A stretch of 16,131 nucleotides of DNA from Conexivisphaerales archaeon (GTDB lineage Archaea > Thermoproteota > Nitrososphaeria > Conexivisphaerales > DTJL01): assembly GCA_049509455.1 (NCBI GenBank), contig JBEKZX010000035.1, positions 1 through 16,131 of the forward strand, given 5' to 3'. A program made the position numbers and the translations under genes. Below are positions 5,172 through 15,454 of this stretch, in pieces. Numbering within the stretch: position 1 is the stretch's first letter; each line of letters opens with the position of its first letter. The notes beneath the pieces were generated by a model. The model was not told the origin of the DNA, made no database searches, and worked only from the letters and a program-made list of their open reading frames with translations.

Positions 5172-5345
5172 GTGAGCAATCGATTTGACCCTGAAGGGGA
5201 CCCTTGGCATCCCATTCGATATTTCAGGAGACAGGAGGAACTCGAGGCCGCCAGGGAGCTGGGGAACGAAGAGAACTCCGACTGGATCACGGAGCAGCTG
5301 AAGAAGGCCCTGGACCCAAAGGACAGGGACACCGTCGAATTCTAG
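5172..5345 (+). CDS. Small hypothetical protein (57 aa)
   Basis: GTG start about 22-25 nt after TATTTTT; host-like codon usage; charged helical sequence; contains copy 1 of the 33-nt direct repeat. Confidence 0.55.
   Translation: MSNRFDPEGDPWHPIRYFRRQEELEAARELGNEENSDWITEQLKKALDPKDRDTVEF
5271..5303 (+). repeat. 33-nt imperfect direct repeat, copy 1
   Basis: GAGAACTCCGACTGGATCACGGAGCAGCTGAAG; 30/33 identical to 5878-5910. Confidence 0.9.
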
Positions 5346-9846: not shown

Positions 9847-11649
9847 TTGTCCGACTTTGAGACTCGCACCATCGAGGAGGTCCAGAGCTCCACCCGCTAT
9901 CTGCTGAGCTCTTTCAAAGACAAGATCGACCTCCTAAAGAAGGCAGGTCCCGACCTTAAGCGGCTCCTGCGCTTCGGCGTCGATTACGATGCGGCATTCC
10001 GTACCGCGACCCGATTCTTCGGGAAAGAATATGTGAAGTACATCGCCATCGACGGCACGGACGCCCTGGATGAGCAACTGGACCTGCTCGTATTCTACGT
10101 CGGGGCCTTCGCATACGTCGGCTCCGTCATGTTCTCTCCCACGGGGGTCGACATCGGAGACGCAACTCCCGGTGGCTCCGACCTATCTGTCTCGGCAGCC
10201 ATCCCCCTTTCAGAGGAGGACGCTGCTCTTGTCTTCGGACAGAAGACTCAGTCGGGTGTCGAAGTGGATCCGGAAAGGCTGCCCGGCTCCATCATGCACC
10301 TCTCCGAGTACTATCTGGCCTACAAGGCTGCGGTGGCTGACGGCAGCCTCAGAGTCATCCTCATGGACAGGACACTGGCGGGCGACGTGGGCCACCTCAA
10401 CTGGAGCACGAAGGAGCTCATCGAGGACCATGACTGCATACTTGAAGGGATTGACACTCCCCACGGCAGGGTGACCAACCTCGACCTCCAGCTTGCGAGG
10501 ATGCTACTGCCCAACCCTCAGCTCAAGACCCCAGCCCCGCGGAGCCAGCTCCTGAAATACGCCGCCCTGGAGCTCCTGTTTCAGGGCGACCAGCTGAGTT
10601 CGCAGCAGATCGTCGGCAGACTGGGGGCCCAGCCGGCGAGGGAGGAGAAGCTACGAGACGACTTCGGGGGGCTCGAGAGCGAGTTCCACGTCTTCGAGAA
10701 GGTCTTCAACTACAAGCTCAAGCCCGACGTTAAGTTGTACTGGGATAGGGTCCTCGCGGCGGCCGGCATGGTGGCGGAGCATATCTTCGACCCGAAGGGA
10801 AGGCATCCCCTGCGCTTCAGGAAGGGTGCCGGGGAGCGCTGGATTACGGCCGACGACTTGGACTTCATGACGCTGATTTTCATCCACGCCGTCACGAGGA
10901 AGGCCTGGGCCGACAACCTCCTCTTAATAGGCATGGTAAAGGACACTTCGGCCTCCGAGCTAGTCAATGCGGTGGTGCCCATCCTGCAGAGCGCCGGCAA
11001 GCTCAAGCTGGGCCAGGAGCTCCCCAGCTTCAACAGCGACAAGATGCTCCTGCAGACGGACAGCGTCATCAACGCCGCCGACGTCCCCACGCCATGGCAT
11101 ACAATCGACATGGACGCGGCCTTCAGGACGATGGCGCCGGAGCAGGACCCCAAGCTCAAGAAGGGGGAGACCAGGGTGAGGGGCGCCTTCAAAAACGTCG
11201 TCAACGCCGAGAGGACCTACGTCAAGACCTACGTCCAGCTCTGGAGCAGTCAGGCCAACCCCGCCGTCAGGAGCCACGTCTTCAGCTTCGACAGGCCGGC
11301 CTTCGCCGAGTACGACCACTGGGACGAGGTGCTCGTCCACCACCAGGACAACAATGTGGACGAGAAGATAGCCCCTATCCTCCACTTCGACAGGGGGTCG
11401 GAGATGACCAATTTGGCGATGGCGATGCTATTCCAGATGGGCAAGGAGGTCGTGCCTGAGGCCATAGGCCACAACTACCCCCTCTTCCTGGCCGACAAGA
11501 AGGCGAAGGCCGTTTTGAAGCAGAACCGGGAGGCCTACCTCGGGGCCGTGGCGCTGGAGATGAGCAAATCGGACCTGGACCAGCAAGTTCTTTTCTCCAG
11601 CCGGTTTAGGGACTACAGGAGCCAGGTGGAGGCGAAGAGGAAGAGATGA
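9847..11649 (+). CDS. nurA: NurA-family 5'-3' nuclease, long form (600 aa) with an internal insertion
   Basis: RNase H-fold motifs YIAIDGT, VILMDRTL, LIGMVKD and C-terminal GHNYPLFLADK; ATGA overlap with the downstream HerA-like gene. Confidence 0.82.
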   Translation: MSDFETRTIEEVQSSTRYLLSSFKDKIDLLKKAGPDLKRLLRFGVDYDAAFRTATRFFGKEYVKYIAIDGTDALDEQLDLLVFYVGAFAYVGSVMFSPTGVDIGDATPGGSDLSVSAAIPLSEEDAALVFGQKTQSGVEVDPERLPGSIMHLSEYYLAYKAAVADGSLRVILMDRTLAGDVGHLNWSTKELIEDHDCILEGIDTPHGRVTNLDLQLARMLLPNPQLKTPAPRSQLLKYAALELLFQGDQLSSQQIVGRLGAQPAREEKLRDDFGGLESEFHVFEKVFNYKLKPDVKLYWDRVLAAAGMVAEHIFDPKGRHPLRFRKGAGERWITADDLDFMTLIFIHAVTRKAWADNLLLIGMVKDTSASELVNAVVPILQSAGKLKLGQELPSFNSDKMLLQTDSVINAADVPTPWHTIDMDAAFRTMAPEQDPKLKKGETRVRGAFKNVVNAERTYVKTYVQLWSSQANPAVRSHVFSFDRPAFAEYDHWDEVLVHHQDNNVDEKIAPILHFDRGSEMTNLAMAMLFQMGKEVVPEAIGHNYPLFLADKKAKAVLKQNREAYLGAVALEMSKSDLDQQVLFSSRFRDYRSQVEAKRKR

Positions 11650-13451
11650 GCCTGCAGGTTTTCGACGATTTGGGCGGCGAGTTCCAGGCCCAGCTAAGAG
11701 AGATCAAGTCGAACACTAGGACCACGGTGGACGGAAGCTCCACCATCACCTTCAGGACGGCTAGGATAGAGTGTAGTTACACACCAAAGGTCATCAAGAG
11801 GTTGGCGGCGGGGCAGCTCCTGGCCATCCCCAACGTCCAGGCCATCGGGGTGAACGACGCCTTCTCCATCTACGAGATAGCCGACGTCTACCCAATGCAC
11901 TACTCCATGCTGACCCTGGACACGTCGCAGCCGGCGGCCATCAGGAAGGAATTCATGGAGATGATCCAAAAGGAGTGGGAGAAGGGCTCCAAGAGCACGT
12001 GGATCGAGATAGTCGGCGCCCCCACCAATTACACCATGAAGGTGGGGACGGACGGCCTTTCCTTCGAGAAGAGGCAGTCGGCTCCGCTGACCGGCAGCGC
12101 CGTGCGGCTCCTGAGCAAGGACGCCATCCAGAAGCTGCTGTGCTATTCGCCCAAGGCAGGCGTTGAAGACAACACCTTCGGGAACCTCCTCGGAGTCACC
12201 GACCAGGAGCTGGCCTTCACGGTTGACGTTGAGAAGCTGATACACTACCACGTGGGCGTCTTCGCCTTCACCGGCTCGGGCAAGTCCAACATGACGGCCA
12301 TGATTGTAAGGAAGGCGCTCAAGGTCGTCCCAGACCTGAAGGTCGTTATATTCGACGTCTCATCGGAGTACGGCGTGCATCTCCTCGACGTCTTGGACGG
12401 AAACCCCAGCAGGGTCATCTTCACCGAGCCCTTCGAGACTGGGAAGGAGGCGGAGGACTACGTCAAGCACCATGCCCTCCCCGAATCCCTGACGGACAAG
12501 ACGAAGAAGCTGGAGGAGAGGGTAGAGAGGCTCTTCAAGGCGGGGAAGGTGAAGACAGTCGAGCTCCCCATCGTGGGGGAGGAAGGAATACTCAGGTTCA
12601 GCACATACGGCGGACTGGTGGAGGTCCTGTCGAACACCCTCAACGACAAGTACGGGGCCGTGAACACCAAGCTCTACGTACCGGTAATCATAGACAGGAT
12701 AGATCGCTTCGTCAAGGACAACGGCCTTACGACGGATTCGACCTTCGACGCGAAGACTGAGGGCCTCCTGGACGGCCTGAAGGACATCACCGACAAGCTA
12801 GAGGACCGCGCCACGCTGAAGAAGGTCTTCGACGCGCTGACGACGGTCGTCGGCATGTTAGCTGAAACGAAGAAGGAGGAGGGAGAGGCGTACACCTGGG
12901 ACGACGTGGTCGACGAGATACTCTCCACTGACAAAGACTCCCCCAGGATCTTCGTCGTGAACCTGCCAGAAGCCGAGGACGCCAGGCTACAGACTGCGGC
13001 CGTCATAGGGAAGGTGTTCAGGAAGAGGAAGAGGAGCTTCACCCTAACGCCTCGCGTGCTCTTCGTGATGGACGAAGCCCAGGAGTTCATGCCGAGGGAG
13101 ACCAGGAAGGAGGACGGCACGGAGCAGGCCAGCAGGGCCGTCGAGAGGCTGCTCAGGCATGGGAGGAAGTACCACCTCCACGGCTGGATCAGCACCCAGC
13201 GGGTGGCGAATCTCAACACCAACGCCCTCCAGCAGCTGCATAGCTACTTCGTGTCGACCATGCCCAGGCCCTACGACAGGCAGCTCATCTCGGACACCTT
13301 CGCGATAGACGACGCCTTCATGGAGAGGACGCTGGCATTCCAGAACGGGGACTGGCTGCTCACAAGCTTCAAGGCGACTGCGACGCAGAACATACCCGTC
13401 TTCTTCCACGCAGAGAACAACGAAGAGGTACTTGGGCGGTACTTAAGTTGA
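11646..13451 (+). CDS. herA: HerA/FtsK-superfamily ATPase (DUF87/HerA-like helicase-translocase)
   Basis: N-terminal HAS-barrel-like region, Walker A HVGVFAFTGSGKS, VIFDVSSEY, Walker B VMDEAQEF, arginine-finger motif RHGRKY and sensor STQR; translationally coupled to nurA. Confidence 0.9.
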   Translation: MSLQVFDDLGGEFQAQLREIKSNTRTTVDGSSTITFRTARIECSYTPKVIKRLAAGQLLAIPNVQAIGVNDAFSIYEIADVYPMHYSMLTLDTSQPAAIRKEFMEMIQKEWEKGSKSTWIEIVGAPTNYTMKVGTDGLSFEKRQSAPLTGSAVRLLSKDAIQKLLCYSPKAGVEDNTFGNLLGVTDQELAFTVDVEKLIHYHVGVFAFTGSGKSNMTAMIVRKALKVVPDLKVVIFDVSSEYGVHLLDVLDGNPSRVIFTEPFETGKEAEDYVKHHALPESLTDKTKKLEERVERLFKAGKVKTVELPIVGEEGILRFSTYGGLVEVLSNTLNDKYGAVNTKLYVPVIIDRIDRFVKDNGLTTDSTFDAKTEGLLDGLKDITDKLEDRATLKKVFDALTTVVGMLAETKKEEGEAYTWDDVVDEILSTDKDSPRIFVVNLPEAEDARLQTAAVIGKVFRKRKRSFTLTPRVLFVMDEAQEFMPRETRKEDGTEQASRAVERLLRHGRKYHLHGWISTQRVANLNTNALQQLHSYFVSTMPRPYDRQLISDTFAIDDAFMERTLAFQNGDWLLTSFKATATQNIPVFFHAENNEEVLGRYLS

Positions 13452-13532: not shown

Positions 13533-14075
13533 TCACTTCTTGTACCAGAAGCTCTTGTAGTCCTTGCCGGTCTTCGTGTGCGACCTCGCGAACTGGAATG
13601 CGTGCTTTATGCTCACGCCGTCCACGACGTACCTCTTGTAAAACATGAGCGAGAACAAGGCGGCGTCATCCCATCTTACTTCGGTTGAGGGCGCGATGAA
13701 GTAATCCGACTTGAACGCTTCGGCCATCTTCTTGGTGTTGCTCACGCAGGCGTTGAGGAACACCAGCTTCGCCGTGTGGTCCAGCCTGTCTATCTCCTCC
13801 GCTGATACCTCCCAAGTGCTCCCGTTGCCTATCGTCGCATCGCGCGGCCCCTCCTTCAATCCGTGGGCCGAGATGTGGATGATGTCGTACCTCTTGCCGG
13901 TATTGAGCTTGCTGAGGAGCTCCGACTTGCTTCTCACAGAATAGCACACCGCCTTCGCCTTGGCCGGTTTGAAAAGGCGGCAGATGGAGAAGAACTGCTT
14001 GAGCAGTTTCCCCTCGCTCGGTTCGCCCTTTTGAGTGCAGTCCAGTACCAGAATGGATCGCCCTGTCATCATCAC
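13533..14075 (-). CDS. Stand-alone CHAT-domain (caspase/HetF-like) cysteine peptidase, about 180 aa
   Basis: Intact clan CD dyad motifs YDIIHISAHG (His) and LVFLNAC (Cys), followed by the CHAT-like FIAPSTEVRWDDAALFSLMFYKRY...SIKHAFQFAR segment. Confidence 0.8.
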   Translation of the reverse strand: MMMTGRSILVLDCTQKGEPSEGKLLKQFFSICRLFKPAKAKAVCYSVRSKSELLSKLNTGKRYDIIHISAHGLKEGPRDATIGNGSTWEVSAEEIDRLDHTAKLVFLNACVSNTKKMAEAFKSDYFIAPSTEVRWDDAALFSLMFYKRYVVDGVSIKHAFQFARSHTKTGKDYKSFWYKK

Positions 14076-14127: not shown

Positions 14128-14397
14128 ATGAAGGACGGAATAGGAACCATCCTTGACCAGACGTTGGATACGCTAGATGACCAATTGTCAAGAAAGAGGG
14201 TTAGATGCACCATCAAGGGAGGCTCCATACATGAATACCGTTATGTCGTCCTTCGTCGAAAAGGACATGAAAGAAACCCCCTCCCGACACTGGGTGTTGC
14301 CCACACGTGGGCCTCTCTCCATGTCGAGCCAAGACATAATAATCGGGCGGGACGAGCGTCTCTGAGGCGACATCGCCGTTGTCAGTTTGTCTCATAG
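14128..14397 (+). CDS. Possible basic hypothetical protein (89 aa)
   Basis: ATG-initiated ORF ending just before the parB-like gene; the segment RVRCTIKGGSIHEYRYVVLRRKG looks protein-like. The C-terminal half is unconvincing and the region is rich in inverted repeats. Confidence 0.25.
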   Translation: MKDGIGTILDQTLDTLDDQLSRKRVRCTIKGGSIHEYRYVVLRRKGHERNPLPTLGVAHTWASLHVEPRHNNRAGRASLRRHRRCQFVS

Positions 14398-14428
14398 CGT
14401 CTGGCGTTGGGAGGGGAGGGCGGTTCCC

Positions 14429-15454
14429 TTGACGGAGTTCAGAGTCCTCGACGTAAAGAAGATACAGCCTAACCGGCTGAACCCCAGGCTGGAGTTCGGA
14501 AAGAAGGGCCTCGACGAGCTCTCAGACAGCATCAAGGAGAAGGGCCTCCTCCAACCCATAGTCGTCAGGCCAAGGGGGAGCTACTACGAAGTCGTAGTGG
14601 GGGAGCGGAGGTATAGGGCGTCCCAGCAGGCCGGACTGTCCGAAATCCCCGCCGTCATCCATGAATACTCTGACGAAGAGGTCATAGAGCTGAACCTGGT
14701 CGAGAACATACAGAGGTCGGACCTGAGTGCCGTGGAGAAGGCCAAGGCATGCAGCATGCTGAAGGAGAGGTTCCCCGATAAGTACAGGTCCTGGGCCGAC
14801 GTGGCCGCCAGCATCGGCGTCGATTCGGATACCGTCAGGAATTGGGTCAGGACCCTTGAGCTTCCCGAGGAGGTGCAGACGATGGTGGCCCCTAGGGAGC
14901 GGAAGAGGGTCCCCGAGGGGAAGGTGGGCTACGCCACCGCCCTCGACGCCGCCAAGAAGATTGAGGAGAGGCCCAGGCAGGTGGAGGTTATCAAGAGGAT
15001 CGTGGAGGAGCAGCTCCCCCAAGCGAAGGCCAGGGAGGTCATAAGGAAGGCCGCTGAGGAGCCGAAGAAGAAGGTGGAGGAAGTGGTCAGGGAAGTCCTC
15101 ACGGCCCCAGTTCAGATGTCCTTCAGGATGAACGAGGTCAGACCTGTACTCAGGGGCGAGAAGACCCAGACGTCGGGCCACTACACACCAGACGAGATGG
15201 AGAGGCTGAAGCCCGGTTCTGTAATACACGCCTCCATCTGCGAGCCCCACTTCGCCGACCTCAGGGTCAGGAACAGGACCATCAAGCGGCTGAGGGAGTT
15301 CACAGATTCCGACGCCAGGATGGAAGGATATGTCGATCTAGAGCGCTACAAGGAGGCGTGGGCCGAAGCGCATGGCTCATGGGACGCCGACGATATGGTC
15401 GACATAGTCCAGTTCGACCTCCTGAAGAGATACCCGGGCGTCGAGGGCGTCTGA
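14429..15454 (+). CDS. ParB/Spo0J-family protein (ParB N-terminal domain plus HTH) fused to a C-terminal ASCH (PUA-like) domain
   Basis: ParB: IQPNRLNPR...LSDSIKEKGLLQPIVVR...YEVVVGERRYRA...ENIQRSDLSAVEKA. HTH: SWADVAASIGVDSDTVRNWVRTLELPEEV. ASCH: MSF...VLRGEKTQT...LKPGSVI...LREFTDSDARMEGY...VDIVQF. TTG 14429 has GGAGG upstream; alternative start 14387. Confidence 0.88.
   Translation: MTEFRVLDVKKIQPNRLNPRLEFGKKGLDELSDSIKEKGLLQPIVVRPRGSYYEVVVGERRYRASQQAGLSEIPAVIHEYSDEEVIELNLVENIQRSDLSAVEKAKACSMLKERFPDKYRSWADVAASIGVDSDTVRNWVRTLELPEEVQTMVAPRERKRVPEGKVGYATALDAAKKIEERPRQVEVIKRIVEEQLPQAKAREVIRKAAEEPKKKVEEVVREVLTAPVQMSFRMNEVRPVLRGEKTQTSGHYTPDEMERLKPGSVIHASICEPHFADLRVRNRTIKRLREFTDSDARMEGYVDLERYKEAWAEAHGSWDADDMVDIVQFDLLKRYPGVEGV

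Follow-up and report, generated by a model that had tools for sequence, protein, structure and literature searches.

A ParB-HTH-ASCH fusion protein in a Conexivisphaerales archaeon: a putative orphan CTP switch with a probably non-catalytic ASCH domain

We analysed the entire 16,131-bp contig JBEKZX010000035.1 (C70; hereafter, the window) of the 2.05-Mb genome (G000; completeness, 95.5%) of a Conexivisphaerales archaeon. At 14429..15454 on the + strand, the window contains a gene of 341 codons plus a stop codon, in the product of which a ParB N-terminal domain and a helix-turn-helix (HTH) domain of the ParB type are joined to an ASCH domain. The explanation of this ParB-ASCH gene that we favour, with moderate confidence, is that it encodes an accessory orphan ParB protein, which would bind DNA and act as a cytidine triphosphate (CTP) switch, and in which the ASCH domain would serve for binding only.

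The N-terminal domain, of the CTPase fold, occupies residues 3-95 (14435..14713, + strand; Pfam PF02195, E = 1.8e-31, and 1.9e-32 in the genome search) and is followed by the HTH domain at residues 98-207 (14720..15049, + strand; PF17762, E = 3.9e-7). Thermus thermophilus Spo0J was the best PDB sequence match (5e-35, 40% identity over these two domains), and in a structural comparison residues 23-203 of our model matched Spo0J 1vz0 with Z = 14.7. Among the NCBIfam models, the generic TIGR00180 (parB_part) gave E = 4.7e-41, and the best similarity was to Noc (2.9e-46, far below the cut-off of that model). The sole PADLOC match of the protein was that of its ParB domain to a methyltransferase model, and a scan of genome contigs with the single protein as query gave canonical bacterial ParBs and no others. 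Across 120 aligned homologues, the Box II or P-motif GERRYRA (residues 58-64; 14600..14620, + strand) was nearly unchanged (G58, E59, R60, R61, R63 and A64 invariant; Y62 in 119 of 120). In Box III, ENIQR (residues 92-96; 14702..14716, + strand), E92 and R96 were invariant and N93 was found in all but one sequence (119/120). Position 42 of the C-motif GLLQPIVVRP, Gln in the window (14552-14554, + strand), was Gln in 27 and Glu in 93 of the 120 sequences. Box III ENxxR and the Gln or Glu of the C-motif, both implicated in CTP hydrolysis, are therefore present as far as sequence alone can tell. An original prediction, made from the letters of the window, had called the CTP-binding motif GERRYRA and the HTH intact, and the Pfam matches and the conservation among the homologues agree with it. 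A related protein, an archaeal ParB-DUF488-HTH fusion, bound CTP (10.1101/2025.10.10.680097).

The ASCH domain, a PUA-like beta-barrel, extends over residues 226-334 (15104..15430, + strand) and occupies the place of the C-terminal dimerisation domain of ParB. The Pfam ASCH match is slightly under the cut-off (E = 0.0015; 19.6 bits against 21.2 bits), and phmmer with the ASCH part alone found no match in the PDB, whereas profiles and the fold search did. The AlphaFold2 model built on the 120-sequence alignment had a mean predicted local distance difference test score (pLDDT) of 88.6; the single-sequence model (pLDDT 46.8) was unusable. The original prediction had proposed superposition of a model on the Escherichia coli protein YqfB as a check. 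In an exhaustive structural comparison, model residues 226-332 superposed on YqfB (9kyf_A) with Z = 14.4 and a root-mean-square deviation of 1.9 Å over 100 of 102 residues, at 21% identity, and further ASCH structures ranked after YqfB at Z of 9-12; the domain does model as ASCH. Foldseek gave E = 9.6e-6 and a template modelling score of 0.83 for the model against YqfB, hhalign of the family profile against YqfB of E. coli K-12 gave a probability of 94.5% (E = 7e-8), and YqfB was the only significant PDB sequence match of a profile made from the ASCH part alone (47 sequences). Because the fold model, hhalign and the ASCH-only profile all point to YqfB, we regard the assignment as secure despite the sub-threshold Pfam score. 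Thus, an ASCH domain has replaced the ParB C-terminus, as first proposed for positions 15107-15420, in agreement with the limits found here.

YqfB is an N4-acetylcytidine (ac4C) amidohydrolase, and the alignment pairs its Lys21, Thr24, Arg26 and Glu74 with K245, T248, G250 and E299 of the window protein; at the places of YqfB His70 and Tyr89, the window protein has Asp295 and His315. This is exactly the mapping first proposed, with Lys, Thr and Glu kept and Arg changed to Gly. The octapeptide GEKTQTSG (residues 243-250; 15155..15178, + strand) retains Lys245 and Thr248 and has Gly250 at the position of Arg26, the oxyanion hole of YqfB. Glu299 (15323..15325, + strand) was found in 120 of the 120 aligned homologues, of which 98 have Arg at the position equivalent to Arg26, 13 have Lys and 6 have Gly. 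Full-length orthologues are present in two of the four other genomes of the same genus (G001 and G003; 76% and 73% identity). Both read GEKVQVSG, with Val for the nucleophile Thr and for Thr246 and Gly for Arg; Gly at the Arg26 position is thus common to all three genomes of the clade, and the Thr to Val change is confined to the two orthologues. YqfB was inactivated by each of the substitutions Lys21Ala, Thr24Ala and Arg26Ala (PMC6972931). The Val at the nucleophile position suggests that the catalytic site is not being kept up by selection in the window clade. For the three members of this clade, pairwise dN/dS was 0.09-0.15 for ASCH, 0.07-0.16 for ParB_N and 0.12-0.30 for HTH, values that are rough because dS is near saturation. 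As far as these estimates go, the ASCH domain is under purifying selection, as is the whole protein. Since the domain is constrained though its catalytic site has decayed, it appears to be kept for something other than YqfB-type catalysis.

The wider family gives this decay a context. We collected 80 full-length homologues with their flanks from a metagenome scan and clustered all neighbouring open reading frames (ORFs). Of the 70 loci with a called downstream neighbour, 32 had a member of one family of about 250 amino acids (aa) directly 3' of the ParB-ASCH gene and in the same orientation; the spacing was usually 1-13 nt or the two genes overlapped. An example is L037:11005-11775 (+), beside the ParB-ASCH homologue at L037 10001-11008, and 31 other loci have the gene in the same position. 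This partner has invariant Cys and His residues and several hundred relatives annotated as hypothetical, which are mostly archaeal where a source is named. It had no significant Pfam match, only a weak lead to the dual-OB family DuOB (3 of 20 members at E~0.01; Atlas, 0.87), and a PDB sequence profile search with it found nothing, nor did a literature search for "DuOB" and "PDC-M19" by name return anything useful. The PADLOC models of PDC-M19B, in contrast with these searches, matched 20 of the 20 aligned partner proteins (best E = 1.4e-70). The candidate phage-defence systems called PDC were proposed on the principle of "guilt by embedding" (Payne et al., bioRxiv 10.1101/2024.01.29.577857). 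The PDC-M19B partner was not found downstream of the gene in the window, in the rest of the window genome or in the two orthologue genomes, and the window protein did not match the M19A models.

In a tree of the 80 proteins, partner-linked members stood on both sides of the midpoint, and the window clade was on a long branch (0.96). Every partner-linked protein had the complete motif Gly-x-Lys-Thr-Gln-Thr-[Ser/Thr/Ala]-Arg together with the Glu, and degenerate ASCH motifs were found only in partner-less copies. Counted as distinct sequences, the partner-linked proteins were 29 intact and none degenerate, and the partner-less ones, limited to copies followed by 800 nt or more of sequence, were 11 intact and 19 degenerate; since the sequences are related, the correlation perhaps reflects three or four independent events. 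The original prediction had suggested a role in defence or epigenetic control and had named neighbourhood analysis as a check on it. The defence part gains indirect support, as about half of the homologues are in an apparent operon with a gene of a candidate defence system, and the window itself lacks that gene. A eukaryotic-type DNA topoisomerase IB gene adjoins ParB-ASCH on the opposite strand at 13 loci (for example, L054:1820-3154 (-)); these loci form one clade with mostly degenerate ASCH motifs, and the arrangement is probably lineage synteny.

Comparison within the genus showed that the ParB-ASCH gene is accessory, dispensable and strain-variable. Both orthologues sit among unrelated metabolic genes, and no other gene of the window is found within about 8 kb of them. 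The genome G004 is nearly conspecific with that of the window (HerA, 97% identical; flanking DNA, about 92% identical). The segment 13474..15694, which contains a CHAT-like gene and ParB-ASCH, is variable between the two, as delimited by blastn of the window against the G004 contig C3 and by Pfam analysis of the G004 insert. Between the same flanks (a 600-aa gene and HerA on one side, a nitroreductase gene on the other), G004 has a different sequence of about 3 kb (L124, G004:C3, 7230-10257) in which a PNPOx-like gene is accompanied by two or three ORFs of unknown kind. No ParB match was found in G004, a genome that is 86% complete, and no repeats bracketing the variable segment were found.

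On the explanation that we favour, the intact N-terminal domain and HTH would give DNA binding and CTP-driven self-association of the N-terminal domains, as in ParB, Noc and KorB; use of CTP and binding of DNA are the most likely activities because the nucleotide-binding domain and the ParB HTH are intact. In the wider family, the fusion is typically the first gene of a two-gene operon, the second encoding a dual-OB-like protein with Cys and His residues that matches PDC-M19B. In the window lineage, the partner would have been lost and the ASCH active site would have decayed, and the ASCH domain would most likely be a ligand-, nucleic-acid- or protein-binding module, not an N4-acylcytosine amidohydrolase. 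The ancestral role of the family may have been related to defence, and the window protein is probably a defence-related or regulatory remnant. Several points weigh against this explanation, besides the roughness of the dN/dS values and the small number of events that may underlie the correlation of motif and partner. Binding of CTP and of DNA and closure of a clamp are predicted from motifs alone, and a closed clamp may not form at all without a C-terminal dimer. The window protein itself retains the Lys, Thr and Glu of the YqfB triad; because of this, and because the ASCH Arg is dispensable in EOLA1, residual amidohydrolase activity is possible. Finally, the putative link to defence is guilt by association twice removed, PDC-M19 being itself a candidate.

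One alternative is that the protein is a CTP-dependent regulator of transcription or of the nucleoid, of the KorB, VirB or Noc type, with the ASCH domain serving for dimerisation or effector binding only. Orphan ParBs with intact CTP motifs and HTH act in this way (10.1101/2025.10.10.680097), and both the similarity to Noc and the purifying selection on the whole protein are consistent with it. However, the surroundings of the gene in the window, in the orthologues and at the 80 loci showed no conserved palindrome, the near-conspecific G004 lacks the gene, and there is no conserved neighbour that could be regulated. We consider this alternative possible but on the whole unlikely; it overlaps with the accessory CTP switch favoured above rather than excluding it.

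Another possibility is an active enzyme on a clamp, in which the ParB part loads and slides, and a competent ASCH amidohydrolase strips DNA or nascent RNA of N4-acyl or similar marks. In its favour, the YqfB triad has aligned counterparts in Lys245, Thr248 and Glu299, and the ASCH and YqfB folds nearly coincide on superposition. Furthermore, 19 of 19 ASCH proteins tested removed ac4C from tRNA, and EOLA1 could do without the ASCH Arg, whereas another protein could not (10.64898/2026.02.27.708502). Because the full motif is strongly conserved across the family, such a model is plausible for the partner-linked relatives. In the window protein, however, the oxyanion-hole Arg is Gly, a position at which Arg26Ala inactivates YqfB (PMC6972931), the orthologues have Val at the nucleophile Thr and at Thr246, and there is no C-terminal dimerisation domain to close a clamp. 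Thus, the suggestion in the original prediction that the protein removes a base modification is unlikely to apply to the window copy, and we are doubtful of an active enzyme here. The putative sliding clamp of the original prediction is also weakened, as the C-terminal dimer that usually closes such a clamp is missing.

The neighbouring genes raise a further alternative, a four-gene system of a NurA-like protein, HerA, CHAT and ParB-ASCH. In the window the four genes stand side by side, HerA is matched by HerA models of PADLOC, and a weak CHAT match (E = 5e-5) was obtained for the 180-aa protein. Such a system is very improbable, since none of these neighbours accompanies the orthologues in G001 and G003, G004 keeps the NurA-like gene and HerA (about 92% DNA identity) without CHAT and ParB-ASCH, and none of these families recurs beside the 80 homologues; the same comparisons contradict a conserved unit of these genes.

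The features that define a partition ParB were also looked for. There is no ParA in the window, as the original prediction had noted, and none of the 707 neighbour proteins across the 80 homologous loci has a Walker A motif of the ParA/MinD type (0/707). The window genome has one ParB_N gene. The conserved core of the N-terminal domain starts near residue 8, and residues 1-3 are missing from half of the 120 aligned homologues; because the family has no N-terminal extension, there is no room for a ParA-activating peptide. The residues where the C-terminal dimerisation domain would be expected, 226-334, form the ASCH barrel. The canonical parS (TGTTNCACGTGNAACA) has no site with up to one mismatch in the 2.05-Mb genome, although a different site is possible; there were three sites with two mismatches (4.25 expected), and the counts at two to three mismatches were at or below expectation. 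In archaeal chromosomes, ParABS is generally absent (10.1101/2025.10.10.680097). ParB-ASCH is thus not a partition protein, and the original prediction was right to set partitioning aside. An ordinary ParB for partition of a chromosome or plasmid, suggested by the database name "ParB family partition protein" and by the 40% identity to Spo0J over the N-terminal and HTH domains, is contradicted by the missing ParA, ParA peptide, C-terminal domain and canonical parS and by the dispensability of the gene, and we give it hardly any credence.

The ORF of the gene ends at 15454 on the + strand and has two possible starts, TTG at 14387 (355 aa) and TTG at 14429 (341 aa). A GGAGG-rich stretch at 14410..14424 (+ strand), 5-19 nt before the latter, resembles a Shine-Dalgarno sequence and may act as one. 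Because of this stretch and because the nearest database homologues, among homologues of 328-345 aa, are 341 aa long, 14429 is the likelier start. The window also contains genes for TFB, for the XPB helicase with its Bax1/DUF790 partner and for metabolic enzymes, and further along it the 600-aa protein without a Pfam match, HerA, the small CHAT-like gene (minus strand), ParB-ASCH and the start of a nitroreductase gene. Its content of guanine plus cytosine is even (0.53-0.61), and no match came from scanning the window with Rfam or for tRNA genes.

The gene for the 600-aa protein and that for the HerA-type ATPase (9847-13451, +) overlap at stop and start and are translationally coupled; the pair is kept in G004. 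The CHAT-like gene (13533-14075, -) encodes a stand-alone protein of 180 aa with a His...Cys pattern, which Pfam scored at 23.3 bits against a cut-off of 24 bits, and no linkage of it to ParB-ASCH was seen in other genomes. A stretch of about 90 nt around a 33-nt direct repeat occurs at 5244-5333 of the window and twice in G004 (L124, 10258-10346 and 16515-16578), where the two copies flank the NurA-like and HerA pair, one on each side. The gene order from TFB to HerA differs between the window and G004, and the repeat may mark points of rearrangement. In genomes of the same order and class (L009, L014, L020, L021 and L025), another orphan ParB-like protein occurs. It is some 282-323 aa long (about 285 aa in other genomes of the order), and its N-terminal and HTH domains are followed by a C-terminus that is helical instead of ASCH; G001 has both kinds.

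The fusion has been catalogued before. A survey of ParB-CTPase folds lists the combination with ASCH (PF02195+PF04266) as archaea-enriched and "RNA-related", without experiment (bioRxiv 10.1101/2025.10.10.680097; also PMC12704722), and found that archaeal ParB-HTH proteins of such kind are rarely accompanied by ParA. An essay from the Aravind group noted ParB-HTH fused to ASCH in cyanobacteria (PMC4738411). Our word-indexed search gave more than 5,000 ParB-family matches; the best 120 of these were nearly all 328-362 aa long (the nearest, 341 aa), most of them with precomputed ParB_N, HTH_ParB and ASCH domains, and the few named sources among them include Bathyarchaeia and Chloroflexota. Databases hold thousands of fusion members, mostly metagenomic, under the name "ParB family partition protein". 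Since the survey and the essay list the architecture and the databases hold these members, the fusion is experimentally uncharacterised but not unrecorded; the original prediction, which knew of no characterisation of it, was correct as regards experiment, and the architecture itself was already on record. The ASCH-only profile, searched against 1.84 billion representatives, matched 2,927 clusters at E<=1e-3, and those beyond the fused proteins of about 330 aa were mostly proteins that stand alone and, at 100-130 aa, are about as long as YqfB. The one full-length viral match to the window protein was a 348-aa ParB_N and HTH protein, 34% identical over nearly its full length (L109:7938-8984, IMGVR_UViG_3300050026_000481), in which Pfam calls no ASCH; its gene lies between two HNH endonuclease genes, with a PAPS-reductase-like gene close by.

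For the window, our outcome is deflationary: the copy is partner-less, strain-variable and probably non-catalytic, and the NurA-HerA-CHAT genes next to it do not belong with it. The points at the level of the family are more useful. The roles of CTP switches of the ParB fold beyond chromosome segregation are being actively studied, and among the archaeal forms to which no function has been assigned the ASCH fusion is one of the commonest. A YqfB-type ASCH with a conserved catalytic motif, an ancestral operon with PDC-M19B, and a loss of the partner that goes with decay of the motif now provide a handle on this family.

One speculation, which we think quite unlikely to be right, is that ParB-ASCH, ancestrally together with PDC-M19B, forms a CTP-gated DNA-loading system that reads or erases N4-acyl-cytosine marks in DNA. 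It would be a cellular counterpart of the phage modules of ParB with an ABC-ATPase and GNAT, which are reportedly predicted to acylate DNA bases, and the partner-less copies with degenerate sites would be reader-only derivatives. We know of no established biology of N4-acylcytosine in prokaryotic DNA; if the idea were true, reading and erasing of such acyl marks would therefore add a new level to the conflict of archaea and Chloroflexota with their viruses.

Among known systems, the window protein shares with the ParB/Spo0J family of CTP switches the fold of the N-terminal domain, GERRYRA, ENIQR, the C-motif and the ParB HTH. With T. thermophilus Spo0J (1VZ0) and Noc (7NFU) in particular, it has in common the CTP-binding domain with GERRxRA and ENxQR and the HTH, but it lacks the ParA-activating peptide, the C-terminal dimerisation and DNA-binding domain, a parA neighbour and a canonical parS. 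With E. coli YqfB (PDB 1TE7, 9KYF/9KYH) it shares the superposition of the whole ASCH domain and the threonine-type octapeptide GxKTxTxR, from which it departs by Gly for Arg26, and it also has Asp for His70 and His for Tyr89. YqfB is a stand-alone protein, whereas the window ASCH is fused to a DNA-binding module. The archaeal ASCH-AAAD_HTH erasers of ac4C in tRNA (bioRxiv 10.64898/2026.02.27.708502) likewise have ASCH joined to a helix-turn-helix; however, their domain order is reversed, their HTH is LysR-like and unrelated, they have no ParB CTP domain, their catalytic residues are intact, and their activity on tRNA was shown. In the candidate PDC-M19 cassette, M19B is shared by about half of the ParB-ASCH homologues, with ParB-ASCH in the place of M19A; the window, its genome and the two orthologue genomes lack M19B. 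The architecture is the same as that of the surveyed ParB-ASCH fusions, for which the survey gave neither an analysis of the active site nor a partner gene, and within that family the window copy stands apart, being divergent, on a long branch and decayed in its ASCH motif. Judged by its domains and motifs, the window protein is thus predicted to function most like the orphan ParB CTP switches Noc, KorB and VirB, as a divergent, partner-less member of a catalogued family.

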